DNA from: Nemertoderma westbladi
Lineage: Eukaryota; Animalia; Xenacoelomorpha
Direction: 5' to 3'
Length of the DNA stretch: 34,398 nucleotides
Assembly (NCBI GenBank): GCA_032718475.1
Contig: JAUCBJ010003191.1
Coordinates: 1-34,398 of the forward strand
The position numbers were made by a program, and so were the translations under genes. A model generated the notes under the pieces. That model did not search any database. It was not told the origin of the DNA and worked only from the letters and a program-made list of their open reading frames with translations. Below, piece after piece: positions 467-28,843 of the stretch (positions are counted from its first letter, which is position 1; each line of letters opens with the position of its first letter).

Positions 467-662
467 CTGAAAGGAAAATGAGCAAAACATATCTAAAATT
501 ATATAGTACCATGTATTAGTAGACTATTGGAAACTAACTGTAACTAGTACAATTACCCTCTGATTATGCAACTGCCACCCTCACCAAACACTATTGCGAC
601 CCAACAGATTCATCTAAATTCCAAACAGGTGTCGCAATTGTCCTAACTTCCCTACCACTAAC
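467..662 (-). other. Phase-1 spliceosomal intron (196 nt) of the transposase gene
   Basis: Donor CAG|GTTAGT at 663/662 and acceptor TTTTCCTTTCAG|GT at 467/466. Splicing fuses ORFs 658-1527 and 219-512 in frame. Confidence 0.85.
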
Positions 663-1577: not shown

Positions 1578-3223
1578 CCCTATTAAACCCAGAGGGGGGT
1601 CAATATGACCCCCCCCCCCCCCCCCCCCCCCCCGTGGTTTTTTATTATAATTCTGAAACAAACGCAGTTGGGAATCTGAAATTTTATGACTTTTCCTAAA
1701 AATCTATTGTCTTCCTAGTAGTGAAAACCGTTTTCAAAAATATTGGGTAGTTTTCGAGTTATAGCACCATTTTTTAACCCTACTTTTGGCACTTTTTTTG
1801 AGACGTTTTTTGAAAATTACATTTCATTAAATATGAATTGTAACATCTCTATTTTTGATTTACACCGGTTTTTTTGGTGTTAGAAATTGGATAGAATTCA
1901 TATAAATTGATTTAGAAATTTCAAACTTGTTTTTTTCGGTGGGTGCCAAATTTTGGTGCCAGCACCAAATTTTGAAATATGTCAATTTTGTTAATTGATT
2001 GTTTGAAACTTGTTTTTTACGCAATTGGGGTTTTTTGGGGTTCTGAATTCGATGAACATGAAATATATACGAGTTACACCAAGCGTATCAATCTTGTATT
2101 TTTCGGTGCTGTGTGCAAATTTTGGTGCTATCACGAAATTTTGAAGATCCATTCAATAGATAAAATTGCTTGTGAGCATTTATTTCTTGCGTTTTAGAGG
2201 TTTATGGCTGTTCTGAATTCAATGGAATATATAATTATCGAACTAGACATCTCAAACTTGTATTTTTCGGATATGGGTGCAAAATGTGGTGCTAGCACCA
2301 AATTTTGAAAACCATCAAATATATCAATTGATTGTGTCATCTTGTTTCTTGCGTTATACGGGTTTGTGATGGTTCTGAATTCAATGGAATCAGTAAAAAT
2401 TTCATAAGAGTTCTCAAACTTGTATTTTTCGCCGGTGACTGAAAATTGTTGTGCCAGCACCAAATTTTGGAAAATATGCAAATTGATCAGTAGATAGTAT
2501 CACCGTGTTTATTGCGTTATACGGGTGTATGAGGGTCCTGAATCCGATGGAATCAATAAAAACAGCACTGGACATCGCAAACTTGTACTTTTTGGTGATG
2601 GGTACTAAATTTGGTGCTAAAATTTGCCAAATTACGCCGAAAAATACAAGTAGCAATGATCTGGCATATTAGAAATGTATTCCATTAGAATCAGCGCCCT
2701 CGAAAACCTGAAAATACGAATTTATAGCATCGTATAAGTGAATTAAAAATTTTGTGTTCTAACTGAAAAGTGCTGGTTTCTTGTTTTTTTCATTTTTTTC
2801 CTACGCAGAGAGGACTAAACAGCCATTTATAGTAATCATATTATTTTTAAATATTTTCCAATGTATTTTATACCCCAAAAAACCTGTATTGAAAAATAAT
2901 TAGAAAAAAAAATTATTTATAATTTAAAAAAAAATTATTAGTAATAAATAATAAAATAATTGAAAAATTAATATAAAATGTAACTTTCAAATTTTGTGAA
3001 AATTGTGCACTACTTGTAATTTTGGTGCTGCAATATAACCACCCAAGTACATTTTTTCTAAAATTTTTTTTCGGTCGGATCCATACAAGTGATACCTACG
3101 TACAAACAAAAAATCAGACGTTTTCGTAAATATTTGTAGATTTTAGAGGGGGGGGGGGTCCAATATGACCCCCCCCCCCCCCCCGGTATTTGTACAACAT
3201 TTTATAGCCCGGTACTAATAGGG
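1578..3223. mobile_element. Non-autonomous piggyBac-type (TTAA) DNA transposon/MITE
   Basis: TTAA at 1574-1577 and 3224-3227. Termini are CCCTATTA.../...TAATAGGG. Subterminal palindromes GGGGGGTCAATATGACCCCCC lie at ~1595 and ~3150. Excision restores the interrupted ORF. Confidence 0.85.
1920..2630. repeat. About 5 diverged tandem copies of a ~163-bp unit inside the TTAA element
   Basis: The motif caaacttgtatttttcgg...ggtgc.agcaccaaattttg recurs at ~1922, 2089, 2252, 2415 and 2578. Confidence 0.75.
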
Positions 3224-4375: not shown

Positions 4376-5955
4376 AGTGGTCAAATTTCTGGTTGAAAGT
4401 GATGAACTCTGGGTTTTGTGGGTTTTATATCTTTCAATATTAAATTATTCAATTTTAATTAATTTTTCAATGACAAATGCTAATTTTTTTTTTAATATTA
4501 TATTAAAAGAAAAATTATTAATAGAAGGACTATTATTAATAGGAGGGCTGGGGCAATATTGTGGGCAATATTGTGGGGCAGGTGATTATACTAGGGGTAC
4601 CACCTACCTTACCTGTCTTACTTTCTTATTTTTCTTTGGACAAGCCTGGGCTGGGATAATGTGAATTCTATCTGGTCTGGATGCTAATGTTACTTCAACA
4701 AAGTTTGCCTTGTGGCTTGCCTGAGGAGACATTTTCATTAAAGTGAATATACAATAAAATGTAAAATGTGTATAAATGTCATATAAATGGGATCTTTGGG
4801 AGGGGGGTCACATGTTTTTATTTGGTTTTCTTATTATTTGCTTGTGTTCGTTAATATTTTGGTTTTCATGGGTGATAAAATTAAATCAAAATTAAAAATT
4901 CAATATTTTGCATAAGTTATTAAGTATAGTGACCGTTTCTCTCAAGAGGGGGGGGGGGGGGGGGGGGGGGGGCACGTGCCCCCGTGCCCAAAACTCTAAA
5001 ACAATATATGGCAGCCCCTCGGCTACACCACTATTATAACTCAATAGTGGTGCGAGCATAAAACTCAAATCACGCAAATTTACAAGAACCGGGTATGTTG
5101 TCATAATATCTACAGTATCTCCACAGGTTATTCTGCTTGACTGGGTCTGGGTGCCAGGGTGCGAATTTGCTTTTGGGACGGTGTGCTGATTGAAAGGGGG
5201 GGGGGGGGGGTGAAGGGGGGAACTTCCCCCCTTTTCACTTTGACTGATTTGCGGTTTTGTTAAATTTCTTGGATATAGTTGTTGTGATGCTAAAATTTAA
5301 TTTGTCTTTGATAATGTATTATTTTGTTTCATATTGTTTAGACCTTCAATTTTCATAATATTAGTTGAGTTTTTGTTTATACATTTGCTCTATAACATAT
5401 TAAATAATTTGTATTTTTTCAAAAAATTGAATGAAACTGTTATCACTATTATTATCTTACTAGAACTACTGACACTGATGTGGAACAACTAGGATATTTG
5501 CGCTTTTAGTTTTAGTAACTATAGCTACCCCTTTCTATTGTTAGTTTTGTTCTATAATCCAGCATTGTTGATTGCCTTAGCAGCCGGTGTTGTACAATTT
5601 GTATGGAAATGGAGTCTGCATTTATAATATAGGGTGGTTCTAGGGTGGGTTCAGGGTCATCACTCGCTCGGTGTCCTGGTTGTGCATCATGGGAATTTTT
5701 TATAAATATTCGGTAATCTTACTGTATATCTTGTAAACCTGCTTGATAATGGAAATATTTGCTTTATATTATATTTTTGTTAGTGGTAGCAAAGTTTCAC
5801 TTTTTATTATGTGGGACGAGCCACAAATTCAGCTAGCCTCACGCCTTACAGTTTAGACAATTGTTTAGTTCACTTACTGCTGACTGACTGACAAGGTTCA
5901 TTTGTAATAGTCTTGGCTAGGATTCTTCCCCCGGGCTCCTTCCTTTCTAGTAGGT

Positions 5956-7114
5956 TGTTTGCGCTTTTAAGACCTTTGACAGTTTAACCTGCCAAATTAG
6001 GATGTCTTTTGGATGATATATAGTCTTTAGCCTATGACGAGTATTTGATACACTACATTAGCCGAAGCCAGTCTATGCGCAATCATTCACCCGCTGGATA
6101 TACCCGGGAGACTGAATTCGGAAGCTTAATGATTGATGGTGTAAGCCTACCGTATTATTCGACTGATCGTAATATATAATCTCTGACAAATATTATTCAC
6201 TTTCGGGAAATATTAACAGTTCCTTTAGGACGTGGCGCTCTAAATATGTAAACAGAGTTATGACTTAAACTAGACACAACGAAAAGGCTATAGATTCACG
6301 TATATGGCGCATTCTTTAGGAGATGCTTTGTTATCAGTCACAATCATACACAATGCTGCACAATGCTGCACACCAATCTGCCGACCTTCACTAATTTTAG
6401 TCACATACAAAGAGAATAACAGACAATACATGTAGGGCCTATAAAATAGCATTAGATTCACTTCAAACCACTTAACATAGGTCGCAATCGTTTATCTGTA
6501 ACCGGTCTCTCTAACCTTTAGTATATCAAGAAGGTTGGGTGTCTGACTATTGATCAGTTAAATATAATATAATCTTCCATCAATAAATATAATGAATAAC
6601 CGACAGCAAAAGCAGTAATGTTAAGTAAGATATGCATGATATGTTTAGTAAGCATTGATAAGGTAACTCGATAACAGATATACGTTCTATAATTAAGCCT
6701 ACTAATGTAAGACTAAAGACTGAAACACGGAGGTGCCAAAAGCCGGTGTTCTTAGGCTCTGGGCAAAAACATAACACTGAATTCCTGAGTTTCTGTATCC
6801 ACCTCCAACACAGAGACAAAAAACGCTCTGATTGGTCGACCGAACAACGAGAGAACAAAGAAACAAAGAAATGTCGATGTGGCAATATCAGCTGTTAGCC
6901 GTCGTCATAGTAGCGACACTGTTTTCAAGAGTATCGAGCTTATTGCGTCACGAAATTGCGGATTATGTCCTCTAAAGTACAAATACAGAAGAAATGGCTT
7001 TTATGTCCTCTAAAACACCAGTACAGCAAGGACACGGCCTTTTTATGCCTGGTAAACCAACCACAGAGTACTTTACGGGGATAATAACCGGCTAATTACG
7101 CAAAAGCTTTTACA
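5956..7114 (-). repeat. 3' LTR (1159 bp)
   Basis: TGTTTGCGC...CTTTTACA, about 99% identical to 14942-16099. By eye there are 4 substitutions plus one 6-7 nt block difference. Confidence 0.95.
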
Positions 7115-7122
7115 CCGCTCCC
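7115..7122 (-). other. Short polypurine-tract-like site before the 3' LTR
   Basis: The minus strand reads GGGAGCGG immediately before the TGTAAAAGC start of the 3' LTR, consistent with gag orientation. Confidence 0.55.
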
Positions 7123-9058: not shown

Positions 9059-9400
9059 TTAGGGAGGTGGTCGTGGGAAGAGTATCTTGCCTTCCATAGT
9101 TTCCGGACAGTTTTCGGTCTCTTTCCAGTAAACATAAAGACCAGCTGGGCGATTGAGTGGTTGTGTTACTTTCTCCGCTCCCTTGGCCTGTCTAATCTTC
9201 GCCGGGTTAAGATGGGGAGGCCATTCATCTTCTTTACTTAGGAAGTCGGGTTCACCTAACCAGTCTGGAGTATCTGTAAGTTCTTGAGGAGTTGCTCCTC
9301 TGGAGGCGATGTCGGCTAGATTGATAGTCTCGGGGCAATGTCTCCATTGATCTACATTGGAGTTGATGTCGTCATTATCTGAGGAGTATGGTGTTCCCTC
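9059..9400 (-). pseudogene. Remnant of BEL/Pao pol (end of the RNase H region)
   Basis: QWRHCPETINLADIASRGATPQEL..W..EPDFL...WP matches the Pao WRHVPxxxNPADxxSRG motif. PR, RT and IN are absent. Confidence 0.8.
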
Positions 9401-12377
9401 AGACGCAGACTTCATCACACACACTTAAGCGGTGGGGCCCATCGCACAGCACACATTTGGGCTTGATGTTACTTACTTTAACATGTGCTGTGTGGTGCAC
9501 GTTCGTTCTTTCCTCGGGCTTTCTCACCTGAATTCTTTTGGGAGACGTAGGATGAGTTTTTCTTACCTGTTCTCTCCTGTCATTGGTTCGAGACTTGAAT
9601 TTACTTACCTGGTCTTTAGGCGTTTTATTGACATAATAAGATCTTTCAGTGTCTTTCCCGCTATCCTCTCCTTGAGAAGTCTGGCTTTCGCCGTCGTCTG
9701 TATAACACACTGGTGTTACCCTTCTCCTAGAAACGGGTTTCTCACTTACCTTGTTTTCCAGTGTCTTCTCTCTGGACTGCCTTAGGAGCTGTAATTTCAC
9801 TTCTCCATCTAAGAATGACATGAGATCAGCCATGGTAGGGTCTCGTCGTTGTTGTTCCATCATATATAACACTTTCTTGTCCCAGCGTGTACCTACTCCA
9901 CCCTTGGGCAAAGTAGATGCTAAGGCTCCTACAACCATAGAATTCTGGTATTCATGAGACTTACCTAGCCAATCTAATTGTCTACAGATCTCCTGAATCT
10001 CATCGGAAAACTCTATAATCCCGCTGCTAAGAAACTTTCGGGGCGCCATTAATTTTGCATACAAATACCTAGCTATGTTATTCCTATTACCATACCTGAT
10101 GTTTAGTGTATCCCAAACTTGTCTTAATCCGTCTGGATGTCCAATAAACTTTAACGCCATTAACTTGGGAGATCCTTCCAAGCACTCAATGAGGAATCTA
10201 AGTTTCTCTCCATTAGATAGCACAGAGTTCTGTATGTTATCTTTGTAATATTCATTAAAAGGTAACCATTTCATCTCATCTCCATTGAACTTGACGATCT
10301 CTCCCACCTTTACCGCTTGCTGGGCTTCGGTTCTAGCCATTTGACGCGTAAAACTTTCTTGGGCCATCGTGTTATTTAATATCGAGTTATCGGTATATAA
10401 ATTTCTCGGATTATGATCCGGTCTATAGGGAATATCATTATCAACAGATCTATAATTACCCTTAATAGGGTTCACTATAGGAGTTTCTACTTCGCTAGCA
10501 GTATAGATGCGTGTAGGCTCCACACCTTGCGCATGAGATACTTCAGACCTAACAGGTTGACACATTGTTACAGGGGGTGGTGGTATACCCTTTTGTGTAT
10601 TTACTAATTTATCGCGTTCTAGCGCGATACTTTGCTGCACTTCTTGCAACTCTAGCCTACTTTCCCTTACTGTGCCCTTGAATTGCTGAACGGTCTCCTG
10701 CATCTGTCCGAGCAGGAGATCCATCCCCCGTCGTCTCTCATCCACCCATTCGACCGCCGAAGCGGGATTCGCCAACGTTGTAGCGGGCGGATGAGGGACA
10801 ACGGGCGACAAATCATGAATATTTCGCTCGGAGTCCAGGGCATGAACTGTCTCATGGGCTGTTCTGCTGGGCACAGGTAGCTTAGTACTGTGCAAAGGGA
10901 ATTTAGAGGTAGGTTCAGGGAGTACAGGTGTCTCTACCACCGAAAGGGTAGCTTCGAGAACAGGCCTAATTATTTCAGGCTCATCTACTATAGTAGGGAG
11001 TCTCTCTATTGTAATTATTTGGTCTGTGGGTTCTGTACTACCTAAGTTGGTGTTATTTAGTTGCCTTCTAACAGCTGGAGGCAAATCAGGCAATTTCTGA
11101 CGGTGGGATGTTCTTTTACGTCTGCTTAGCTGAGATCTATTTCCTTTGCCTTCAGTATCGGTGGTATCGCCTTCCTCAGATGATGTATATCCCTGTCTTT
11201 TGGGAGTAGATCGATTCATCATCTGCATATTACTAGCTGTTAACTGTTTATTTATGCAGTCTTGATTCTCCTGAATATTTTCCAATTCTAATTGGGCGAT
11301 CTCTTCAGCCGCTATCCGCTCTGCTTCTGCCGCTGCCATTGCCGCTTTTCTTTCCATTTCGGCTGCTTTTCTTTTCGCTTCTGCCTCTGCCGCTGCCGCT
11401 TTTCTTTTCGCTTCTGCCTCTGCCGCTGCTGCTGCCGCTTTTCTTTCCATTTCGGCTGCTTTACTTTCCTCTTCGGCTGCTTTCCTTTCGGCTTCTGCAG
11501 CTGCTACTGCTGCTTTCTTTCTGTCTTCTATGCGTTTTTTCTTCACCTTTTCTTCTTGGTCTCTAGCGATGCGGAGTTGTTCATCGAATTTAGCTTGGTT
11601 CGCCGCTAACCTATCCACGTCGATGGCGTCAAGCACACGCTGTGCTCCTTCACTATTAGGGTTAAGTCCATCCAACCTTCTCCTCAACTCTTCATCACCT
11701 AAGAAACGTTGATAGTCTGACAGATAGATATCAATGGCATCCCTCTTATGCGGGTTCTCTGCCGTCGTTTCACTTTCCACTTGGGAAAAAGTAGCGTCTG
11801 TTGATTCTCCATGGGTTGAGCGCTCCTCCAGCTGAGCTTTCCACTGAGCCGTTCCTTGAACTTGGAGACTCACCCGTTGAAACCAAGTCTTTACGGCAAC
11901 TTGCAACGACGTGTCTTGTCTTCTTTTAGAAGCCTCCTCAAAGGCCGATAAGATTAGCCTAATTCGCAGAATTCTTTCTCTAACTTGATAAAGCAGTTGT
12001 CCCTGCTCTTGAGGTCCTTGAGGTTGTTGAAACAGTTGTTCTTTTACTCGCTCCATAGAGCTGAAGAATCCCTGTGCGTATCTGGCTGCGGACCTCTTCC
12101 ACATAGCTGGATCGATGGTTTCCTTGGCTACTCCCATCCGGTGTATGTCTTCCCAGGCAGCTTCTGATAAATCAAACGGGAGTCCGGGTCCGGGGAAGTT
12201 CCATTGCGACTCGACCATAGACTTCAGTTCTTCCCTTGTGTATCCCTCATAACTATCTTTAGTTGATCGCTTACTTCTCGCCCAATCGATCTGGTGTTCT
12301 TCCACCGCAATCAATAACCTAGTGAGTACGGCTGCAGGAAGGATGAGAAGGGGATCCGAATAAACCGCATCCGTCAT
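9399..12377 (-). CDS. gag: BEL/Pao Gag-like protein (992 aa): K/A/E helical repeat, DUF1759-type capsid region, truncated zinc knuckle
   Basis: KFNGDEMKWLPF..NGEKLRFLIECLEG..WDTLNIRYGN is the Pao gag signature, and the C-terminus reads CVLCDGPHRLSVC. The frame stays open for about 67 codons upstream of ATG 12377. Confidence 0.85.
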   Translation of the reverse strand: MTDAVYSDPLLILPAAVLTRLLIAVEEHQIDWARSKRSTKDSYEGYTREELKSMVESQWNFPGPGLPFDLSEAAWEDIHRMGVAKETIDPAMWKRSAARYAQGFFSSMERVKEQLFQQPQGPQEQGQLLYQVRERILRIRLILSAFEEASKRRQDTSLQVAVKTWFQRVSLQVQGTAQWKAQLEERSTHGESTDATFSQVESETTAENPHKRDAIDIYLSDYQRFLGDEELRRRLDGLNPNSEGAQRVLDAIDVDRLAANQAKFDEQLRIARDQEEKVKKKRIEDRKKAAVAAAEAERKAAEEESKAAEMERKAAAAAAEAEAKRKAAAAEAEAKRKAAEMERKAAMAAAEAERIAAEEIAQLELENIQENQDCINKQLTASNMQMMNRSTPKRQGYTSSEEGDTTDTEGKGNRSQLSRRKRTSHRQKLPDLPPAVRRQLNNTNLGSTEPTDQIITIERLPTIVDEPEIIRPVLEATLSVVETPVLPEPTSKFPLHSTKLPVPSRTAHETVHALDSERNIHDLSPVVPHPPATTLANPASAVEWVDERRRGMDLLLGQMQETVQQFKGTVRESRLELQEVQQSIALERDKLVNTQKGIPPPPVTMCQPVRSEVSHAQGVEPTRIYTASEVETPIVNPIKGNYRSVDNDIPYRPDHNPRNLYTDNSILNNTMAQESFTRQMARTEAQQAVKVGEIVKFNGDEMKWLPFNEYYKDNIQNSVLSNGEKLRFLIECLEGSPKLMALKFIGHPDGLRQVWDTLNIRYGNRNNIARYLYAKLMAPRKFLSSGIIEFSDEIQEICRQLDWLGKSHEYQNSMVVGALASTLPKGGVGTRWDKKVLYMMEQQRRDPTMADLMSFLDGEVKLQLLRQSREKTLENKVSEKPVSRRRVTPVCYTDDGESQTSQGEDSGKDTERSYYVNKTPKDQVSKFKSRTNDRREQVRKTHPTSPKRIQVRKPEERTNVHHTAHVKVSNIKPKCVLCDGPHRLSVCDEVCV

Positions 12378-14089
12378 CCTTGCTCCGCGCTCGGGTGTCA
12401 GCTCTACAGTATCCTCACTACTGGAGCTGTCGGGCCGCTGAGAAATAAGTTCGTGGCTCGCGGGTTGTTGCTGTTCCGCTGCTTCTTGGTCCTGCTTGAC
12501 CTGAGCTCGAGTGCCTATGATAGACCTACGATGTTGGACTAGCCTAGGGTCTGAGATTACTACAGTAGGGATGGGCCTTTCTTACAGCAGGAGGTGACTT
12601 AGACTTGGATCTAGGATGTTCTATACTTGGATCTGGGTCACTGATCTTTTTAAGACACTGTCTAACAGTCATTCTAACACTATCTAGGAGACTATCCGAC
12701 AGTGATTGGGTTGTGTCAGACATGTTTGTTTACACAGTTGAATGCCTACGGCATAAATACAGTTAAAGCAAGTCTAGTAATTCAGTATCACTGTTAGCCT
12801 AATAATTAATTACCGATACTGCTACTCAGTGGAGCGTGATATATATATAATATATTAGAATACCGGTATGCTTACAGTATATATAAGTATTATTACAGAC
12901 TAGGTTTGTCACAGAATGCCGGTAGGTACTTTTAGCACAAATATAAAAATATATAATAGGCCTATCGTGAATACCGGTATGCAGTTTACACTTATAGTGT
13001 ATATATATAAGTATAATTACAGACTAGAATTAATTACAGAATACCGGTATAATTTCAGCCTATATTTATAAAAATAAAGATAATAAGCCTATTGTAAATA
13101 CCGGTATATCAATTATTTTAGAATAATTGAATTTCTGAATTTTAAGGGTTACTTGGTTACTTTAACTTACTTATTACCGTTATTTAAGCAGTAGTCCAAC
13201 TGATATTGAGACCTAATTGTTGTATGGCAGGCCTACTATTTATAAATCGTTTGAGTTGATTTATAATATATATATACCCGTTTAATGGGTTTTGTCAATG
13301 TTTGAAATAAATGTTATTATTTCTGGGGGAGTCACTACACATAAGCTGTGCGCTCTCAGTGGAGTGCTACTTGTTAGACACTAAAACAAATAATTCTAAT
13401 TTACCTAAGTTACTTAATACTACGAATTACGTACAATTCGGGTTGAGATTACAATCTCTAAATAAACACAAAAAATTTAATTACAAATACACAAATACAA
13501 ATTTTTAGGGTAATTTTACAAGAAGTCTACTAACCAGCCTAACAAAGGGTTAGAATATCTGGTTATTACAACGGACAGGTTACTACGGTATTTGAAAATA
13601 ATAAGTAGTAGTAAGTATACTGCGCTGTCCAGATAGGAAAATACCACCGTCTGACGACCTATAGCCGTATCGCTATAGGTACTACGTTATGTATCACGGA
13701 GTGTTCCTACCCAGAAGTTAATTACCGCGGTCTACCAGAACCAACGTGCCTATTAACCAATTTACAACACAAATATACTGCCTACACACTAATCACCCTC
13801 GGAAAGTACTGTACACTAAACCCTAAATTAGGTACAAGTACTTGTACAACAAATAATCAGTAGTTAAAAATACTTGAACAGCTAAAAGAACCACGGTATC
13901 TGCCAGAGTGACCAAAGCATAAAATCTCCAGTCTTTACCTACGCCGAGCAGCCCTGATGTAGTACCGGGGTTAGTTTAACTATAACGGTATGTATAACAA
14001 ACACAATTACTGTAGGAATAAACTTGGGGATATGAATGTTGCGAATAATCGCATAAACTCTGAATAATAAATATTACGCTACGCGTACA

Positions 14090-14645
14090 AACTACTCAAA
14101 CAAAATGCAGACCAAATACTGACAGGCTACTATCAAGCCTAAACAAACTACGGTATATGCAGACTCTGAAATGATTAGTTAGTATGCGTTCTAACCCAGT
14201 AGTACGACTTATTCTTTCACAGGGGGTTTACCTCACAGCACTTGAAGCCCCTACTTTCCTAACTTAGCACTTTATCAGACAGATGCTCTATACACACCGA
14301 AATTTCCTCAAACCCAACAACAGCCAGACAACTATCCAGCCTACAAATTATCTAAATAAAATTATACGCTACCCGTACAGACTACACAAACAAAGTACAG
14401 ACCAAACGATGGCAGACTACTATCAAGCCCAAATACACTACAGTATATGCAGACTCCGAAATGATTAGTTAGTATGCGTTCTAACCCAGTAGTACGACTT
14501 ATTCTTTCACAGGGGGTTTACCTCACAGCACTTGAAGCCCCTACTTTCCTAACTAGCACTTCATCGGACAGATGCTCTACACACACTGCAATCCATTCAG
14601 ACTTAACAACAGTTAGACAACAGTCAAGCCTACAAATTATCTGTA
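14090..14645. repeat. ~289-bp tandem duplication in the 5' leader of the LTR element
   Basis: gaaatgattagttagtatgcgttctaacccagtagtacgacttattctttcacagggggtttacc is identical at ~14168 and ~14458. Confidence 0.85.
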
Positions 14646-14930
14646 CAATCTGAGCAGGCTTACACGCCTTCTGCTCAATACTGGCTTACAAATAAATAAA
14701 ACTGACAGAAATAGGCCTAAGTAAAATCCCAATAAAAACCAGGCGTCCCCGATTAATTATTAAGACCTCCTGGTATATAATAATCAAATCGAATAATACT
14801 GCTGTACCTGTACTGTAAGTACCGGTTCGGATGATCAGGCAGTCAGGCCTACTGGTTACAGCAGTACAGGTTACCGTACGACCAGTACCGGTACTTTAGA
14901 CTTGATTGCTTACGCCGCAATCCAGAAGCA

Positions 14931-14941
14931 ATATCTGTTAT
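14931..14941 (-). promoter_or_regulatory. Non-tRNA primer-binding-site candidate (ATAACAGATAT), complementary to LTR positions 15656-15666
   Basis: It abuts the 5' LTR end and lacks TGG. It is an exact 11-nt reverse complement of a site in the LTR (also present at 6671-6681). Confidence 0.55.
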
Positions 14942-16099
14942 TGTTTGCGCTTTTAAGACCTTTGACAGTTTAACCTGCCAAATTAGGATGTCTTTTGGAT
15001 GATATATAGTCTTTAGCCTATGACGAGTATTTGATACACTACATTAGCCGAAGCCAGTCTATGCGCAATCATTCACCCGCTGGATATACCCGGGAGACTG
15101 AATTCGGAAGCTTAATGATTGATGGTGTAAGCCTACTGTATTATTCGACTGATCGTAATATATAATCTCTGACAAATATTATTCACTTTCGGGAAATATT
15201 AACAGTTCCTTTAGGACGTGGCGCTCTAAATATGTAAACAGAGTTATGACTTAAACTAGACACAACGAAAAGGCTATAGATTCACGTATATGGCGCATTC
15301 TTTAGGAGATGCTTTGTTATCAGTCACAATCATACACAATGCTGCACAATGCTGCACACCAATCTGCCGACCTTCACTAATTTTAGTCACATACAAAGAG
15401 AATAACAGACAATACATGTAGGGCCTATAAAATAGCATTAGATTCACTTCAAACCACTTAACATAGGTCGCAATCGTTTATCTGTAACCGGTCTCTCTAA
15501 CCTTTAGTATATCAAGAAGGTTGGGTGTCTGACTATTGATCAGTATTCCAAATATAATCTTCCATCAACAAATATAATGAATAACCGACAGCAAAAGCAG
15601 TAATGTTAAGTAAGATATGCATGATATGTTTAGTAAGCATTGATAAGGTAACTCGATAACAGATATACGTTCTATAATTAAGCCTACTAATGTAAGACTA
15701 AAGACTGAAACACGGAGGTGCCAAAAGCCGGTGTTCTTAGGCTCTGGGCAAAAACATAACACTGAATTCCTGAGTTTCTGTATCCACCTCCAACACAGAG
15801 ACAAAAAACGCTCTGATTGGTCGACCGAACAACGAGAGAACAAAGAAACAAAGAAATGTCGACGTGGCAATATCAGCTGTTAGCCGTCGTCATGGTAGCG
15901 ACACTGTTTTCAAGAGTATCGAGCTTATTGCGTCACGAAATTGCGGATTATGTCCTCTAAAGTACAAATACAGAAGAAATGGCTTTTATGTCCTCTAAAA
16001 CACCAGTACAGCAAGGACACGGCCTTTTTATGCCTGGTAAACCAACCACAGAGTACTTTACGGGGATAATAACCGGCTAATTACGCAAAAGCTTTTACA
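14942..16099 (-). repeat. 5' LTR (1158 bp)
   Basis: Direct repeat of 5956-7114, with TG...CA ends and followed by the TSD TAGGT. Confidence 0.95.
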
Positions 16100-16294
16100 T
16101 AGGTGCACCCCTTTACGGGGTAAATGGTTTTATTACTTATTATTAATTCGATTTAAAAGCCTATTATAGTCATGATCATAGGAGTGCGTTAATAACATTT
16201 AAATTAAATATTAAAATATATAATAAAGGGTATAAAATTGGAGAAAAGCGAGTTAAAAAAGGGGCGATTTATTTATTGCAGGTTTCCAGTTGTC

Positions 16295-16403
16295 CAGGGG
16301 CCGGATTTAGAGTGGCGGGTGGCCTGGGGCCGGGTCAGTGGTTTGTTTGGGTGGGTGGGTGGGGGGGGGGGGGGGGGGGGGGGGGGTTGGTTGTACGGCC
16401 CTG
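16295..16403. mobile_element. 109-bp MITE-like insertion with CAGGG-type ends and a G26 tract
   Basis: CAGGGGCCGGA...TACGGCCCTG is flanked by the direct repeat GTTGTC (16289-16294 and 16404-16409). Its removal restores the LINE C-terminus. Confidence 0.6.
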
Positions 16404-16485
16404 GTTGTCGTAGGGGCGGGCATGAGTCGCTGTTAAATACATGATAAATGTAAGTAGGTGAACCCCCGCAGTATTTGAAGGTGCA

Positions 16486-16720
16486 AAAAAAAAGCAAACA
16501 GTCGGCCGAAGCCGGAGGCGACCCGAAGGCTCCTCTTTCGATAGCTGCTACCCGAGGGTAGGGGTGGGCGCTACTCCTATCCCAAGATTTGCTCCCAGTT
16601 ATTTAACTGGTACTCATTTTATCGACCCCAGTGGATGAAAGGCTGAGTGGACCCTGGCGGGGCTGAACCTACAACCAATAGATTGCAGGCCCGGCGCTCA
16701 ACCAACTGAGCTACCCCGCC
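16486..16720 (-). mobile_element. tRNA-derived SINE (copy 1)
   Basis: The head GGCGGGGTAGCTCAGTTGG contains an A box and is followed by a degenerate B box GGTTCAGCCCC. The core reads ACTCAGCCTTTCATCC..GGTCGATAAAATGAGTACCAG, and there is a T-rich tail and an imperfect 13-bp TSD. Confidence 0.8.
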
Positions 16721-17194
16721 GTTAATGATTGCGGATTTTGATTTTGATTTTGATTTGCAGGTACAATCATCAGATAATTCGTGGAATTGTGTTTTAATGT
16801 TACATAGTTTCCAATGGAAGCCATGAACGGTTAATCTTGAAATTAAATGTCGCTTTCTTCGTCCGGCAGACCTGGTGAGTGTTACCCCCTGACACTAGCC
16901 TTGACTAGCTGTGTTCTCCCTGTGAGGTGGTTTGACCTCTCACTTCTCTCTGTGGCTTTAGGGCCTGTATCGCCCCCCCCCCCCCCGAGTTGGTTATGAG
17001 GCGAGATTATTATTGGTAATCTTGTATTGCCAACTATATTGGTAAAATTCCACTGGTCCCATTTTCGGGTGGATAATGCAAGGGAATTGAATCCGCTTAC
17101 ACCGTCCAAAGTCTCGTCCTCATGTCTCAGTCAATTAGTTCCCAGTCCCAGTAGCTAATTGGAAAAGGTTACATCTGACTACGGTATGTATATT

Positions 17195-17990
17195 ATATTA
17201 TATACATTCGTTTGTACGGTGTGTCTACTTCTCCGTCCACCAGATGTTGGGTATTATAATGCACCGATTCGCCCTTTTGCCCCGGGTGGCCTACAGGATC
17301 CTCTAAAGCAGTTTAAAGGCTCTCCTGTGGTTCAGAGGTCCTCCCATCAGTAGGAATGCCGTCGGCACCCTGCTGATGACCACAGCTATTAATAAGTTCA
17401 CTAACCCTATCATTGTCCAGTCCTCCTGTAAGAAATACTTCTCGTGGTATATCTTAATCGCTCCCTTTCGGAAGTGATACGACTCGTCCCTTCCTGTTCT
17501 CGTACTCCTCTCGGAACTTGTTCCACTATGTTGGCTTGTGGCACACGAGTCCCATCGACTGACCCATTGCCACTGCTACGTATTGTCCCCTTTTATCCAC
17601 CAATCCCAATCCATACGGTTTCGTCATAGCCATGTAGAGTACCTGCATATCCAGAAGATTCGGGGTGTTCAGTCCAATAATACTCCCCGCATCGTCGCGT
17701 ATCGCCGATCCAATCTTGATCATAGTCTTCGACCTCATCTGCACTGCATCCGGTATACGATTCAATTTTTGGTCCACAGCGTTACCCAATGACGGCGTCC
17801 TGTAGGTCCTGACTAATCATTGTTCGTGGATCTCCCTAAACTGATCTTGCAGCGCGTGTGCTTTCTGACTGTTTGGAAGTTGTTTGTAGTATTCCCTCGT
17901 CTTATTCTCTGGATGTCTCAACGTGAAATCCACTAGTAGTTATTTCTCACTCTTCTCCCACTTTCTCTTCTTGATTAGCTTCTCTGCCAT
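17195..17990 (-). pseudogene. Decayed N-terminal part of an unknown retroelement-associated ORF, homologous to 24880-25490
   Basis: VAMGQSMGLVCHKP..KFREEY, FRKGAIKIY..LQEDW.MIGL and PLNHRRAFK match ORF 24744-25475, with many third-position differences. Stops and frameshifts are present. Confidence 0.7.
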
Positions 17991-20334: not shown

Positions 20335-21560
20335 GACGACTATATCTCCGGTACCGGTAGGCCTATTGAGTCGAAATTTTTTTTAATCTACTTAGAACAC
20401 TCCATTGAATGTTTTTTAGTTTGAAAGTTTTGCCCCAAAATGCTCAGAAGTAATTTCGAAAAAAATGATCATTTCGCGATCATGATCTTTTGACCCCCTA
20501 GAATTGAACTTTTTTATGGTCAAATTTTGGCTACCCCCCTAATTCGAGGGTGAGGAATCTTTTTGTAATGTTAAGTTTTTTCATACGGTGAACTCACAGG
20601 ACTTGGTCTTCGAAATAAAACCGAAAACATGATCTTTCGTGATCATGGCCTGATCAAATCGCTTTTTAAAAATTTCGAAATGCTTAAAAGTTGCCCCTTC
20701 TTAATAGAAGTCGATTAGTAAAAAAAAAATCGGGGGTCTCAAACAAAGTTTTCGAGAAAATCGGGAAAAAACGAAAAACACGATCTTTTATGATCAGGTA
20801 TCAGATCTCGAGAACCGGTTGTCCGATCGAGCCAATTTTTTTTTTAATCAACTCAGAATAGACCATTGAACATTTCTTACAATGAATGTTTATTAGAAAA
20901 ATGCTTAGATTCGATTTTAAATATACTGATCTTTTCGCGATCATGATCTTGAGTTTTGACCCACTAGACTTGAACTTTTTTATGCCCAAATTTTGGCTAC
21001 CCCCCATAATTCGATGGTGAGGAATCTTTTTGTGATGTTAAGTTTTTCCATACGGTGAACTCCCAGGACTTGGTCTTTGAAATAAAACCAAAAACACGAT
21101 CTTTTCTGATCGCGGCCTGATCAAATCGTTTTTTGAAAATTTCGAAATACTCAAAAGTTGCCCCTTCACCATAGAAGTCGATTCGTAAAAAAAAAATCGG
21201 GGGTCTCAAACAAAGTTTTCGAGAACATCCAAAAAAACTAAAAAATCTGATCTTTAATGATCAGGTATCAGATCTCGAGAACCAGTTGTCCGATCGAGCC
21301 AATTTTTTTTTTAATCGACTCAGGGCGGTGTTCTGAACGTTTCCTACAGTAATTGTTTATATCAAAAATGCTTAGTTACGATTTTACGAAGTCCGATCTT
21401 TGCGCGATCATGATCTTGGTTTTGACCGGGAAGAATTCACTTTTTTTAAAATCTTTTAACGGGAATCATGACTAATGTGGGGTCGCTGAATCTTTTTGTA
21501 ATGTTAAGTTTTTCGATTGGAGCAAGCCTTGAGTGTCCGATTGCTGATCAAAACTGATCT
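20335..21560. repeat. About 2.5 tandem copies of a ~465-bp unit, probably the interior of a non-autonomous DNA element (~19990-21840)
   Basis: cgcgatcatgatctt occurs at ~20476, 20936 and 21403. tgatcaggtatcagatctcgagaacc occurs at 20791 and 21258. Confidence 0.75.
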
Positions 21561-22149
21561 TTGCTGATCATGGTCAAGATCATGATCTGACACCTCCAAA
21601 AAAAGCTCCTTGAATGTAAACCCATATGCTGCCTATCGATTGGCGCCGGTCCCAACTCCGTAGCATTAGCCGTTTTGGCTGTAGCTCCATAGCAACGTGG
21701 TTGCTAGGGAAGCGGACTTTTTGACTCAAATTGGCCCTAGCCGGAGAACCGTAGACTTTTTTAACACATTATGTATGGCGAAAAGTCTTCTGGATAAATT
21801 TTGGGGGGGGGGGGGGGGTCTAGGAACATCCTATTGTTCGTTTTCGCTTAGTTGCTGAGATCCTCTCGTCCCCCAAATCCCAGGATTCTATAAAGGCATT
21901 CTGCTGGACTAGTTCCGTGGCCGGAATAGTGTTCGGTGTTCTGCGAACAGAGAACCTAATCGGTTTAGGGCCCTGACCGTCCAGCATTAGTGCGTATGTA
22001 AATTATGTACATTGGTACGTAATTATAACTACCTACTCCTAAATATTATGTATGTTGGTATGTTCGTACCCATCAGTTTGTATCAGTTTGTACCACCCCC
22101 CCCCCCCCCCCCCCCCGGGGGGGGGGGGGGGGTTGGTTGTACGGCCCTG

Positions 22150-23355
22150 GTTGTCGTAGGGGCGGGCATGAGTCGCTGTTAAATAGATGATAAATGTAAG
22201 TAGGTGAACCCCCGCAGTATTTGCAGGTGCAAAAAAAAAGCAAACAGTCGGCCGAAGCCGGAGGCGACCCGAAGGCTCCTCTTTCGATAGCTGCTACCCG
22301 AGGGTAGGGGTGGTCGCTACTCCTATCCCAAGATTTGCTCCCAGTTATTTAACTGGTACTCATTTTATCGACCCCAGTGGATGAAAGGCTGAGTGGACCC
22401 TGGCGGGGCTGAACCTACAACCAATAGATTGCAGGCCCGGCGCTCAACCAACTGAGCTACCCCGCCGTTAATGATTGCGGATTTTGATTTTGATTTGCAG
22501 GTACAATCATCGGATAATTCGTGGAATTGTGTTTTAATGTTACATAGTTTCCAATGGAAGCCATGAACGGTTAATCTTGAAATTAAATGTCGCTTTCTTC
22601 GTCCGGCAGTGCAAGTGATCCAGGTGTTCTTGTGAAACTTGTTGAATAATGACGGGAATTTATCGTTGAGATCTTCGATATACGTTTTGCATCCGACCAT
22701 TTTCAATGCAACAGTAGAAGAGGCGTTTTTAGGAAGTCCCAGGAGTCTTTTAACGAAAGTTGTTTTAACTTTATATATTTCTTTCAAATTTAAAAGTGTA
22801 AAATATGGCGCAATCTCTGGGAAAGCATAACTAATCATAGGTTCCAGTTTCAATTGATATTAATTGGAGATATTTGAGGCAGCCAATCGCAGCAAAAGCT
22901 TTCCTCTTTTTCTTGTTGATGTGTTTTGTGAAGACTAAGGACGGTTGCATTTTGACCCCGAGATATTCATATTCGTAATAGAGTTCAATTTCCTGTCCTG
23001 CATAGTTGAATACATCATCAATGGCTAAAATCTCCCTCCCTTTCGGAATTTAATAATTTAAATTTTTGTTAATTTCACCTGCATTAAGTTGTTTGTAGAA
23101 GTACACCATCAGAGTAGTTCATCAAGTCCCTTTTGGATATCTGATTTTATTGACGAGTAGAATTCAAGGTCGTCGGCGAAGAAAATTTGTTTTAGGGTTA
23201 GTGTTGAGAGTTTTATTCCATCAAATATTCTAATTTTATTCTGGAGAAGTGCCTTCGTTAAATTAAATAGCTTCCCCTTGATTCCGAATAGAGAATATAG
23301 TTTGTACATAGAGCAGTATCCTTCTGTCGACGAGATCAAAGGTTTTCCGGAAGGT
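22150..23355 (-). pseudogene. Decayed non-LTR retrotransposon reverse transcriptase and Cys/His C-terminal domain
   Basis: Recognisable motifs include FRKTFDLVDRRIL, IFFADDL, YLGVKMQPSL, EPMISYAF and HGFHWKLC..FHE..DCTCKYC..YH. Internal deletions and frameshifts are present, and the clade is not determined. Confidence 0.8.
22232..22466 (-). mobile_element. tRNA-derived SINE (copy 2)
   Basis: Near-identical to 16486-16720. The TSD ATTTGCAGGT(G/A)CA lies at 22219-22231 and 22493-22505, and the SINE splits the LINE motif CTC|KYC. Confidence 0.8.
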
Positions 23356-23550
23356 CATCCTCAACTCTGCCCCCCCCACAATTGGATCTCGCACCTCGCA
23401 CTCTTCTCTTCCCCCCCCCCCCTCCCAAACTCTCGCACCTCCCCCCCATGCTCCTCTGATACTCAACCCCCTTTTACTTTCACTCTCCATACTCCTGTCG
23501 GGTTCCCACATTCTCATTTCTGTCGTCGCACTTGAGAAATGGGATCCGTC

Positions 23551-23699
23551 TGTGATGGGATCTGAGATCCCGACCGGGTAAGATTTATACGCGTCACTTG
23601 ACTGCTGGTCTGCTGGGCTAGTGTTCTTTTGGCCGAAGGGCGTTGGGGAAAAATAACAGAGTTTGTGTTTCTCGATGTTAATGTTCCAAATGATAATAA
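23551..23699. repeat. LTR-terminus-like repeat, partner of 28607-28710
   Basis: TGTGA(T/C)GGGATCTGAGATCCC...gttccaaatgataata is shared between the two. This copy has about 43 extra nt. Confidence 0.55.
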
Positions 23700-23759: not shown

Positions 23760-25490
23760 AATTGATGACTCCTCCATACGATATAGCTGTCGCTACCTCC
23801 TGATATGTGAATGGCAGTCTCCTCTTGATAATCTCCTGATGGGCTCCCGGATTGCTATTAAAGAAGCCCCACCGGAACTCCTGGGCCTTCATCCTCTGCC
23901 GTGTCATGACACCGACGTCGGCCCACTCCTCAATGATCTTGAACTTCTCTTCATCGTCCATCCAGTCGCACTGACGCCTATAGTGCCCTCGATAGTTGCA
24001 CTTTGAGCATTGGTTGTGCAGCCTCGGACATGCACCCATCCTATGGGTCGACTCGCGGCAGTAGAGACAGGTCGTCCCCCTCTGGAATCGATACAAACAG
24101 CTCTTTTCCTGGTGGGGTTAGTCTCCCACACTACTCACAGCCATGTATCAACGCGTCCCGCCCCAAGTCGTCCTTTGCCCCATGCGGTCTCCTGGGTCTA
24201 TGGAGCCGCTGATAGGCAAACATCTGGACGCTGTGGTCCCTACCCATATCGACATCTTCCTCCACCCTCGGCATCGTCTCCCCAAACACTACCCGTGGTG
24301 CCATTCCCGGTTGCTCTCCCAACCTGATCGTACTTGCCGCGAAATCCATCGCATGCTTCTCATGCTCCCAGGCCCGCTTGCCGGGTTTGTCCCAGAAGGC
24401 TCTCGCCCCACTGGCCATCACCACACTCCCGCCCACCCAGTCCTTGTCTGAGTGGCCGATCCTATCAATGGGTGGCATCTCCCCGAACTCGTCGTCATCC
24501 CCTCCCTTGATGGGAGTGGATCCGAACCTGGTAGCCCGGTAGATCCACTATGTCCCTTTCCACCTTGGTTTCCACCCATAACTTTCCACCCTTCCTGCTC
24601 CCTCAGTCTCTTCCTTGCAAAGTCGCCCTCAGAGCCCCCTGTTATGGGCATTACTTGCAGTCCCGATGTCGACTGTTTCAGTGATCCCTCCATCCATCCC
24701 AGTTCATCCTCCAGAAACTCGCCTGAGGTCTCCGATCCCCACCTCAGCTCGTCCAGGTTCTGGACTTCAAACTCGTATTCCTCCCCCCCTTCTCTCTCGT
24801 CTGCCTCCCTCCTTTCTCTCCTCGCGACCTCCTCCAGTCTCCTCTCCTCGACTTTGTCCGCTTCAAACTTCTTCCACCTCTTGTACGGTGTGCCACCTCT
24901 CTGTCCACTAGGTGTCGGCTATCATAGTACACCGACTCGCCCTTCAGTCCTGGGTGGTATACAAGACCTTTGAAGGCCACCTTAAAGGCTCTCCTGTGAT
25001 TTAGAGGTGCTCCTGATAGCAGAAACGCCATCGGCTCTCTTCCAATAACCACAGCCATGAATAGTTTTAATAAACCTATCATTATCCAATCCTCCTGTAA
25101 GATACATCTCTTCTGATATATCTTTATCGCTCCCTTTCGGAACTGATATACCTCTTGCTTCCCTGGCCTCGCTCCCCATTTCAGCGAGTTCACCAGTTCC
25201 GCTCCGTACTCCTCTCGGAACTTGCCCCAGTCCATCGGCTTGTGGCAGATGAGCCCCATGAGCTGGCCCATCGCCACTGCTCCACAATGTCCCGTGCCCA
25301 CTCCTTGCTCCTCCCGGAACTTGCCCCAGTCCATCGGCTTGTGGCAGATGAGCCCCTTGAGCTGGCCCATCGCCACTGTTCCACAATGTCCCATGCCCGC
25401 TCCTTGCTCCTCCTGGAACTTGCCCCAGTCCATCGACTTGTGGCAGGCGAGCCCCATGAGCTGGCCCATCGCCACTGCTCCACAATGTCC
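23760..25490 (-). pseudogene. Frameshifted ORF of unknown function with an acidic/charged middle and tandem CCHC zinc knuckles
   Basis: The co-directional ORF pieces 24744-25475, 24418-24693, 24131-24478 and the 5' part of 23263-24096 chain together. CLYCRESTHRMGAC and CSKCNYRGHYRRQC both fit CX2CX4HX4C. Confidence 0.65.
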
Positions 25491-25491
25491 T
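25213..25491 (-). repeat. In-frame 99-bp (33-aa) near-triplication
   Basis: ggaacttgccccagtccatcg recurs at 99-bp spacing. The homologue at ~17510-17590 has a single copy. Confidence 0.9.
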
Positions 25492-25517
25492 GTGTTATTA
25501 TCCTATCTACCTTCCTA

Positions 25518-26780
25518 TGTGGCGCCCTCAGTGCCCACAACTTCTATGGTACTATGTACCCTGCTACTACTATGGTATCCGTACATACCCTTCACTTACA
25601 CTCACTACGTGGCGCCCTCAGTGCCCACAACTTATACGGTACTATGTACCCTACTATTGCTACTATGGTATGCCTACATACATACCCTTTACTTTCTTAC
25701 TACGTGGCGCTCTCAGTGCCCACAACTTCTACAGTACTATGTACCCTACTACTGCTACTATGGTATGCCTACATACCCTTTACTTTCTTACTATGTGGCG
25801 CTCTCAGTGCCCACAACTTCTAACTTCTACGGTACTATGTACCCTACTACAACTTCTATAGTATACCTACATACCATACCCTTTACTCTCTTACGTGGCG
25901 CCCTCGGTGCCCACAACTTCTCTGGTACTATGTACCCTACTGCTAGATTCGTTACATGGTTTCTCCGCCATCGCAACTCCGTACACTCTCACCTAATTGG
26001 TGGGGCCTTACAAAGGCTCAATCCAGGTAAGAGGATCGTCAAACAGAGTAATATTTGTTCCGGTCAGTGATGGCCTACCTCTTATGTCACGTTTTGATGT
26101 ATTTTCTGCTCCCCTACATCTACTTCCTCTACCTCTACTTCCTCTACATATACTTCCTCTACATCTTCTTCCTCTATATCTACTTGCGGTATGCGTACAT
26201 ACCCTCCTGACTTCCTCACGTGATGCCCTCAGTGCCCACAGGTTTCTCACTCTCCATACTCTTCGGCTACGGTATGCGTACACATACCCCCCCCCCCTCA
26301 CTTCCTAACGTGGCACCCTTTGTGCCCAAATCTACTACTCCCTACATGGCACCCTTTCTGCCCATCTCTACTACCCCCAGCACCCTTTGGCTGGGGGTAG
26401 GTGGCACCCTTTGTGCCCACCTCTACTACTCCCTACATGGCACCCTTTGTGCCCATCTCTACTACCCCCAGCACCCTTTGGCTGGGGGTAGGTGGCACCC
26501 TTTGTGCCCACAACTTCTACTACTCCCTACATAGCACCCTTTGTGCCCATCTCTACTACCCTCAGCACCCTTTGGCTTGGGGTAGGAGGCACCCTTTGTG
26601 CCCACCTCTACTACTCTCTACATGGCACCCTTTGTGCCCATCTCTACTACCCTCAGCACCCTTTGGCTGGGGGTAGGTGGCACCCTTTGTGCCCACCTCT
26701 ACTACTCTCTACATGGCACCCTTTGTGCCCACCCCTACTACTCCCCAGGTGGCACCCTTTGTGTCCACCTCTACTACTGC
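25518..26780. repeat. Two minisatellite blocks (25518-25940, ~90-105-bp unit; 26310-26780, ~30-bp subunits in a ~90-bp higher-order repeat)
   Basis: gtggcgccctcagtgcccacaacttct and tggcaccctttgtgccca.ctctactac recur. A related single unit lies at ~18440-18490. Confidence 0.85.
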
Positions 26781-26879
26781 ACCCCTCGACTACGGTATGC
26801 ATACATACTCCCCCTCAATTCCTTACGTGACGCCCTCAGTGCAGTCAAAGATGCGTATGCTAAATTACCCTAGGAGCTA

Positions 26880-27123: not shown

Positions 27124-28600
27124 TTAACTCTCCGCGCGCACTATCTGTCGACGCTCTATTGTCTCGATTCCTTGTCTTCTTGGTTGTCTATATTGCGGAT
27201 ACTGTAATGGGGGAATGTCACCCTGCCCCCCCCCCCCCCCCACCGGTGTTATGTTTGGTACTGGGGTTAATGTTAATATATTGGGGCCCATCCATCTATC
27301 TGCAATCGCAGTTCGTCTTATCTCGTTGCACATTATCGTTCTTGTGGTCCGTAATGTTCTCTTGTTCCTGTATGTTCTTGGTTGTCTATATTGCCTATCT
27401 GCAATATCCCCCACAACCGGGTATGCATATCATCCCGCATACGCTTTCCCGCTCTCTCTCTCTCTCTAGCCTCCCTCATACTTTGGTTGGCCAATTCTGC
27501 CTCCCTCTCATCCCGCCCTCTACGCTTGTTCACCTCTCTTGCCCCCGCTCCTTGTGCTCATTCATCTCTCTTGCCTCCCGCTCCTTGCGCTCGTTCATCT
27601 CTCTGGCCTCCTGCTCCTTACGTTCATTATCTACTCTCGCCTCCTGCTCCTTGCGCTCGTTTTCTACTCTCGCCTCCCGCTCCTCACACTCGTTTACCTC
27701 TCTCTCCTCCCGCTTCCTATAGTTTCTCGCCACCCTCTCGGCCCTCTCTTTACACTCTCTTGCTAATTCTCTCTCCCTCTCTAATAGTGCAGTTCCCTCA
27801 TCTAACTGCCTCTCCAGTTCCTTTTTGCCACAATGTCTAGTTGACACACCAGATATATCTCTAACACCCTTCTTGCTTTCGCGGACGATGTATCGGACTT
27901 GTCGGTCGCGATGGACTCCCGTCGCCTCTCTGTCCTGCTAATTTTCCCCCGTTTACTGGGGTTCCTCTAACCGACGACACCAAATCCTTGGGGTTAACCT
28001 CGGATTCGCCGTCATGCGGGTCCGCCCATCCCACTAACTTAATTCCCCTAGCATCCACTAAGTAATGCCCTACGTACACTACGTCTGGTTCCATTACCTC
28101 GGACCGCCACAATTCAATCAGTTCCGTGGCGACCCCCCTCGCTCTCTCACCTGCTAGTTCTCCCTGTCCAAAACGGACTAAGTAACGGAAATGTTTATTC
28201 GACTCACCTAGCCTCTGGTATAGTTTAGGCTGGTCTACCTTTCTCACCTTCTTGGCCTCTTTGAGTAGTTTTTTTGTGGCGTTGTACGCCCGTCGTAGGC
28301 GATCATTCGTCCCGACATCCTCCTCATTGACTCTACCTTCCCTCCTCGTCCAGCGTCATACCGGATCGTTAGCTTTCCCTCCTCATAGTTGTCTGCTGCC
28401 TTCCGCTTGGGTAGTCAGATCGTCCCTCATTGGTGAATCCGGGGTGGCTGGCCAGTACCGTCTCGTCATGGCCTCTCGGATCGTTTGGTTGGTGTCGCCC
28501 GGGGTCCGCGGCGGCGTTCTTTCTCCCTCTGATTCTCGGGGCGTTTGTCCTTCACTCTTCTTGGTGTGTTGTGGTCACAGTTCTCGTTGTAAGGATAGTT
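27124..28600 (-). pseudogene. Decayed N-terminal gag-like region with 33-nt E/R repeats, related to the gag at 33.7-33.9 kb
   Basis: 27195-27305 is homologous to 33735-33850 (GGGCCCCAATATATTAACAT..poly-G..CAGGGTGACATTCCCCCA). It contains ARxxNERKEQE repeats and stop codons. Confidence 0.6.
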
Positions 28601-28606
28601 TTTAAC

Positions 28607-28710
28607 TGTGACGGGATCTGAGATCCCAACCGGGTAAGATTTATAAGCGTCACTTGACTGCTGGTCTGCTGGGTGTTTGTGTTTCTCGATGTTAATGTTC
28701 CAAATGATAA
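28607..28710. repeat. LTR-terminus-like repeat, partner of 23551-23699
   Basis: It starts TGTGACGGGATCTGAGATCCC and has few substitutions relative to the 23551 copy. Confidence 0.55.
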
Positions 28711-28742: not shown

Positions 28743-28843
28743 ATCGCAATACAGAATAACAACAGCAGTGTGTATAGTGATGTTACTAATCATTGATTAG
28801 TAACATCACTATACACACTGCTGTTGTTATTCTGTATTGCGAT
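28743..28843. repeat. Perfect 101-bp palindrome (50-bp arms, 1-nt centre)
   Basis: 28743-28792 is the exact reverse complement of 28794-28843. Confidence 0.97.

Follow-up and report, generated by a model that had tools for sequence, protein, structure and literature searches.

Self-primed reverse transcription has been described for the Tf1/sushi group among retrotransposons with long terminal repeats (LTRs) and is predicted for plant Tcn1 elements and the Ty1/copia TAR elements (Houba, Osr-1), and half-tRNA primers are known from copia elements (excerpts of PMC6317226). The Tf1 primer is 11 nt long, the RNA being cut between bases 11 and 12 (excerpts of PMC7175516), and the Tf1 primer-binding site (PBS) starts with ATAAC (excerpts of PMC11042837). 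The International Committee on Taxonomy of Viruses (ICTV) describes the Belpaoviridae as primed by host tRNA, with a PBS of 18 nt to which the 3' end of tRNA-Arg or tRNA-Gly binds, and its profile terms BEL/Pao replication poorly understood (PMC8742986). Here we analyze a window of 34,398 nucleotides from Nemertoderma westbladi (Xenacoelomorpha), positions 1 to 34,398 of contig JAUCBJ010003191.1 in assembly GCA_032718475.1, which carries a BEL/Pao-derived element on the minus strand. An earlier reading of this DNA from its letters (the sequence-only reading) had proposed that the element self-primes in the manner of Tf1, whose ATAAC start it had given correctly. The best reading of the evidence below is that the RNA of the element probably primes its own reverse transcription.

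The element is bounded by a 5' LTR of 1158 nt (14942–16099) and a 3' LTR (5956–7114). Directly behind the 5' LTR end ...GCAAACA (14942), with no spacer, lies the putative PBS ATAACAGATAT (14931–14941). Its exact complement ATATCTGTTAT, the candidate self-primer, is present at 15666–15656 (LTR nt 434–444, starting at 37% of the LTR) and again in the 3' LTR at 6681–6671. Pairing of the two sequences ends at 11 nt and leaves a loop of 714 nt. From the 5' LTR the distance to the first TGG is 17 nt, and an 18-nt tRNA PBS with a TGG start is thus absent. A Tf1-type element is expected to have 10 nt or more of LTR complementary to the site that follows its 5' LTR; here the match is 11 nt at offset 0. 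The sequence-only reading had described the site, its two complements and the 11-nt limit in the same way, with a loop of about 715 nt.

An exact 11-mer match arose in 22 of 20,000 dinucleotide shuffles, close to the chance of about 1 in 1000 that had been estimated beforehand. Allowing offsets of 0–4 raised this to 59 of 20,000 shuffles, and the laxest test, in which split primers were allowed too, gave 18 of 1,000; Markov estimates of a chance match range from 0.0006 to 0.012. Among 7,817 internal 11-mers, two have a complement in the LTR. One is the ATAACAGATAT site, and the other lies 142 nt further on as part of a predicted helix between U5 and the leader. An exact DNA pattern of LTR end plus PBS gave 26 chance matches in viral contigs, where the likeness in no case continued into the element, and none in metagenome or genome contigs. 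No tRNA gene was found in the window, and Rfam returned weak matches alone, none of them credible at the primer site. A split reading of the element's own primer (10 nt at offset 1) was rejected, with 44 of 500 shuffles doing as well and a poor donor.

The LTRs have the TG...CA ends of BEL/Pao elements and are flanked on both sides by the 5-bp target duplication ACCTA (16100–16104 and 5951–5955). Because the LTRs are 99.1% identical and ACCTA is present on both sides, the insertion is recent and clean, as had been claimed. A gag reading frame of 1060 amino acids from stop to stop (9402–12581, minus strand) carries DUF1759 at residues 765–893 (E 1.9e-12), which marks it as a BEL/Pao-type gag. 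Its first in-frame ATG is at 12377, and the ATGs upstream fall in other frames. No close relatives of the gag were found at E 0.001 in one search, and identity is 20–36% among the 150 matches listed. Behind the gag, a pol remnant of 48 residues (9218–9361, minus strand) has 49% identity to a Pao polyprotein, with 64 matches from 120 homologues. With 120 BEL/Pao polyproteins as queries, no protease, reverse transcriptase or integrase was matched in the element; in place of a complete pol in the order protease, reverse transcriptase, RNase H, integrase, the matches are the gag and the remnant alone. The element is a non-autonomous, gag-only BEL/Pao derivative with a deleted pol, and therefore the enzyme that cuts has to be supplied by a different copy. 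A short purine-rich tract, GGGAGCGG (7115–7122, minus strand), stands ahead of the 3' LTR and is likely the polypurine tract.

Sister copies were compared in public sequencing runs containing the family, of which four of the seven listed were compared as contigs; X1, X3 and X5 are host runs. Over the region 14600–16160 the family is highly repeated and variable, with 10,518 contigs and 140 variable places in X1. Within 15600–15760, all 15 substitution rows fall at 15635–15651 (eight) or at 15694–15715 (seven), and there are none at 15652–15693 or at 15716–15760. The 27-nt block immediately upstream of the 11-mer (15667–15693), which is likely promoter-proximal, shows no substitution listed at 2% or more among contigs and one rare 1-nt insertion at 15678.

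The likeness of the family breaks at 15655/15654, one base past the 3' end of the 11-mer. Summed contig depth, which is not copy number and was used for the position of the step alone, falls between bins 15660–65 and 15648–53 from 228,278 to 7,962 in X1 (about 30-fold), from 112,892 to 5,750 in X3 (about 20-fold) and from 534 to 49 in X5 (about 10-fold). Loose ends start at 15655 in 10 contigs of X1, 3 of X3 and 4 of X5. Their agreement is just 0.56–0.64, which indicates that several unlike continuations begin one base past the 11-mer. Position 15655 is accordingly the last base common to most copies, and the segment 15596–15654 differs between them in several continuations and small duplications. 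Both X1 and X3 contain an insertion of 8 letters, present in a single contig of each run at about 8% of the local depth, and it repeats 7 letters from 15655, much as the product of a slipped strand transfer would. Counting from the start of the 11-mer, base 12 is 15655; it would be the first base past the cut and the point from which strong-stop DNA, having ended there, would jump. Self-priming would therefore predict variation from 15655 on.

Related elements were obtained by alignment of 21 BEL/Pao polyproteins, which fetched 77 metagenome loci and 28 genome-assembly loci. Fifteen of these 105 loci, picked by eye, have an LTR pair that fixes the 5' LTR end and were used; the remaining 90 have no LTR pair or a pair that stops short of a clear end. 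A TGG lies within 7 nt of the LTR in five of the 15 relatives, with spacers of 0–7 nt, and in none of the other ten, so that a TGG-start PBS is not universal in BEL/Pao. Eight of the ten non-TGG relatives (L027, L030, L073, L099, L101, L105, L108 and L115) have a self-complement of 10–15 nt that is formed across a GT-AG intron (0–19 of 1,000 shuffles each), whereas none of the five TGG relatives has one, their longest match being 6 nt. L105 and L108 come from a single assembly and are sisters, which leaves about seven independent cases of a split primer. The donors are strong consensus sites, though the search demanded GT alone, and in a complement scan blind to splicing, a partial complement starts at a pyrimidine-rich AG in six of the ten non-TGG relatives. 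In the eight split-primer relatives, the primer starts at 27–57% of the LTR and lies 44–216 nt from the LTR end, and the intron is present in both LTRs. Two of the eight have a TATA box before the primer, at 31 nt (L027) and 26 nt (L108).

The self-complement is spelled with different letters in different families, the complementarity itself being kept. The expectation that it would be conserved with covariation holds across other families; within the family of the element, variants in primer letters were observed in contigs that show the primer side alone. Because the sites of the relatives start with other letters, the ATAAC start common to the element and Tf1 is no sign of kinship. When loci were scanned without known LTR ends, 17 matches were obtained in 70 loci, against 2 in a reverse-complement control; L046 and the best match in L115 look spurious among the 17, and L030 and L031 are one family. 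On a quick reverse transcriptase tree of 80 rows, the split-primer label (14 rows) clusters, needing 3 changes where shuffling needs 6.7 on average (1 of 500), and the split-primer rows stand apart from the TGG elements. The proposal of self-priming in BEL/Pao is therefore supported at the sequence level, by two independent lines, the break at 15655 and the contrast of 8 of 10 with 0 of 5 relatives, but the element proves to be non-autonomous and most relatives split the primer.

The TGG-type relatives L078 (behind 55), L120 (1120), L123 (8967), L126 (8640), L130 (6257) and L072 have one common primer site, which we take to be that for tRNA-Tyr. The loci L104–L131 are 28 BEL/Pao polyprotein loci in bacterial assemblies, several with full LTRs and target duplications, and are likely animal DNA that was binned there. 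Protein scans of viral contigs yielded no BEL/Pao relatives.

In the favoured reading, the LTR 11-mer of the RNA would pair with the site right behind the 5' LTR. A reverse transcriptase lent by an intact relative would then cleave the RNA directly after the 11-mer, and DNA synthesis would begin from the end released in this way. Transcription would begin at or shortly before 15666, and RNase H would cut between 15656 and 15655, at the place that corresponds to the Tf1 cut. Strong-stop DNA would then end at 15655 and jump from there to the 3' LTR. The mechanism would be one that most relatives may operate with a spliced primer, and the element would be its version without the intron. An intron-less primer would arise if the intron copy in the 3' LTR had once been spliced before reverse transcription; an ancestral intron-less state fits as well as intron loss.

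Folding predictions are neutral on the 11-bp duplex, speaking neither for nor against it. For an RNA that runs from the 11-mer to 60 nt of leader, the duplex has a predicted probability of about 0.87; the value is 0 when the RNA starts at LTR nt 392 or 1, and forcing the duplex costs 0–4.3 kcal/mol over seven lengths. A second partner within the LTR competes for the 11-mer, and the long hairpin predicted behind the 11-mer is no better than shuffles (z -0.27). A predicted 18-bp helix between U5 (15136–15154) and the leader (14782–14801), both arms on the minus strand, lies 140–200 nt from the primer site and encloses it, with a mean pair probability of 0.91.

Several observations weigh against self-priming as set out here. 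When the leader is extended to 220 nt, the probability of the duplex drops to at most 0.001. Of the two duplexes that flank the Tf1 site, no counterpart is evident, the matches near the site being just 7 nt. The loop of 714 nt is far above the 44–216 nt from primer to LTR end in the relatives. No convincing intron that would shorten it was found in the element, and there is no TATA-like motif within 40 nt upstream of the 11-mer. An initiator-like TCAGTC does stand at 15708, 42 nt upstream of the 11-mer and near where it had been placed beforehand (about 40 nt), with two of its six letters varying among copies. The invariance of the 11-mer is weak evidence, as 140 variable places in 1,561 bases (X1) give about a 1-in-3 chance of none in 11, and 15716–15760 is likewise without substitution. 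Where contigs diverge too far for alignment they are clipped, and primer-letter variants appear in the resulting loose ends: letter 6 is changed in one X4 contig and in a two-contig X1 loose end, and letter 4 in one X3 contig, in each case in contigs that show the primer but not its partner site. The alignment of X4, possibly an RNA run, does not cover the 11-mer. Two of the ten non-TGG relatives fail the strict self-complement test, L104 (6170–6183) with a contiguous 8-nt complement at offset 4 and L085 (415–430; LTRs 86% alike) with a partial split match that has a good donor and acceptor. The gag appears to group the element only weakly with the self-priming relatives, its best score being 39.7 bits with L105 and at most 23.3 bits with TGG elements. 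Finally, we infer the transcript start, the RNA cut and the strong-stop DNA from sequence evidence alone.

The break at 15655 could also be an ordinary border between U3 and R. In that case transcription would start at about 15655, the upstream block would be the promoter, a small RNA of the host, such as a tRNA half, would prime at 14941, and the 11-nt match would be due to chance. The strand-transfer junction sits at the RNA 5' end in any LTR element, an AT-rich, TATA-like stretch is present 15–26 nt upstream of 15655, half-tRNA primers have the copia precedent noted above (excerpts of PMC6317226), and tRNA genes were looked for within the window. We nevertheless regard this explanation as unlikely, since a match of about 1 in 1,000 would also have to land within one base of the border, and the split complements in eight of ten non-TGG relatives would be left unexplained. 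Slightly more doubtful is a primer made of the element's own sequence that originates outside the 5' loop, be it the 3' LTR copy (6681–6671) at the terminus of the RNA or a separate short LTR transcript that acts in trans. As the LTR lacks AATAAA, the 3' end of the RNA is not fixed by sequence; a primer in trans would remove the problem of the 714-nt loop, and short LTR transcripts may exist in so highly repeated a family. Against this, a primer at the 3' end would be blocked by a poly(A) tail, the TATA boxes of L027 and L108 place the primer at the 5' end, and the retention of the intron in both LTRs of the relatives would best fit splicing and use of the 5' copy only.

The least likely explanation is that the pairing is regulatory or structural, serving as a switch or as a dimerisation or packaging signal, and that priming takes place at some other site, such as the TGG 17 nt from the LTR, where a tRNA would bind. 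Short spacers do occur in the TGG-type relatives, and both the competing partner of the 11-mer and the predicted helix around the site would suit such a role. However, the longest spacer seen is less than half of 17 nt, the competing hairpin does not exceed shuffles in stability, and a switch leaves the break at 15655 unexplained.

Compared with described systems, the element resembles Tf1, Tf2, Tj1 and the Tf1/sushi group, as presented in the excerpts cited above, in having an 11-nt LTR complement directly behind the 5' LTR, no tRNA site and an ATAAC start. Unlike these Ty3/gypsy chromoviruses, it belongs to another superfamily, with a DUF1759 gag and a Pao-type pol remnant. It further differs from Tf1 in its 714-nt loop and in being non-autonomous, and its relatives differ in splitting the primer by an intron; the three-duplex "pretzel" of Tf1 (excerpts of PMC10085805) is not evident in it. 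If self-priming holds, the element works like Tf1, yet it is not a Tf1/sushi member, as its coding remnants are BEL/Pao and it has no Ty3/gypsy chromovirus reverse transcriptase or integrase. The Tcn1 and TAR predictions likewise show 10 nt or more of LTR that can pair with a site 0–5 nt behind the 5' LTR; these Tcn1 chromoviruses and TAR elements are from plants and other superfamilies, and the excerpts of PMC6317226 mention no intron-split primer. With the ICTV Belpaoviridae (Semotivirus), the element shares an LTR size of 0.2–1.2 kb, the DUF1759 gag, a Pao-type pol (here a remnant), an animal host and a short polypurine tract, but it has no tRNA PBS and lacks reverse transcriptase, protease and integrase (PMC8742986). 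The nearest likeness is to the split-primer relatives, which also have no TGG, a self-complement of 10–15 nt whose 3' end is 0–3 nt from the LTR border, and a similar relative place in the LTR; unlike theirs, the primer of the element is contiguous, without a GT-AG intron, and lies 714 rather than 44–216 nt from the LTR end. The Caenorhabditis elegans BEL element Cer7 reportedly encodes its own tRNA-like primer and would take another tRNA-independent route.

Self-priming is a mechanism known in other LTR superfamilies, and the BEL/Pao case is new to the literature searched. No report of BEL/Pao self-priming surfaced in this mostly open-access literature, taken without Repbase or GyDB records, the full ICTV report or supplements. 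Term look-ups found no mention of BEL/Pao priming in the matched portions of PMC3118150, PMC6238403, PMC554778, PMC9094657 and PMC8220671, and excerpts of PMC4600332, PMC5341516, PMC10085805, PMC11042837, PMC3601003, PMC6934838 and PMC5443660 held no tie between self-priming and BEL/Pao.

The rest of the window is rich in repeats. Within the long leader of the element, 14059–14642 consists of two tandem copies of about 290 nt that are 87% alike. A second BEL/Pao gag-pol lies at 28789–33838 on the minus strand, with DUF1759, protease, Peptidase_A17 and integrase; it is broken near 30473, its integrase is cut off at a 101-nt near-perfect palindrome (28743–28843), and it forms a long branch on the reverse transcriptase tree. 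No LTR pair was found for it, and it has no DNA in common with the LTR of the element. A 499-nt repeat in two copies that are 98% identical (16371–16869 and 22117–22609) has a tRNA-like part, with a weak Rfam tRNA match at 16655–16720, and a poly-C end. It looks like a short interspersed nuclear element, and its middle is presumably of the MetaSINE type. A frame of 313 amino acids at 658–1599 (minus strand) matches the rva_4 integrase core (E 2.1e-16). Tandem arrays occupy 20344–21517 (unit of about 467 nt), 1837–2619 (about 163), 25199–26800 (91–99) and 27544–27741 (33). Diverged repeats (71–96%) pair 17212–17589 with 24881–25293, 27189–27306 with 33739–33849, and 23550–23617 with 28606–28673, which points to additional pieces, nested or duplicated, of some large element that is related to the second BEL/Pao copy.

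For BEL/Pao as a whole, we lean towards the view that a large animal branch self-primes without tRNA, mostly by way of an LTR primer joined by the spliceosome, and that the present family is an intron-less form with a loop of about 700 bases, in which the RNase H cut site is recorded as a border of variation. The border is sharp where the cut is predicted, and it gives a single-base prediction for the RNA ends. If the view is correct, self-priming would extend to a third LTR superfamily and retrotransposition would come under splicing control; where the primer is split, splicing would act as an on-off switch for mobility. Elements primed in this way would escape silencing by tRNA fragments, and annotation tools that require a tRNA site would miss or misjudge them. 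Were it true of much of the group, the ICTV definition by tRNA priming would be wrong for those elements.
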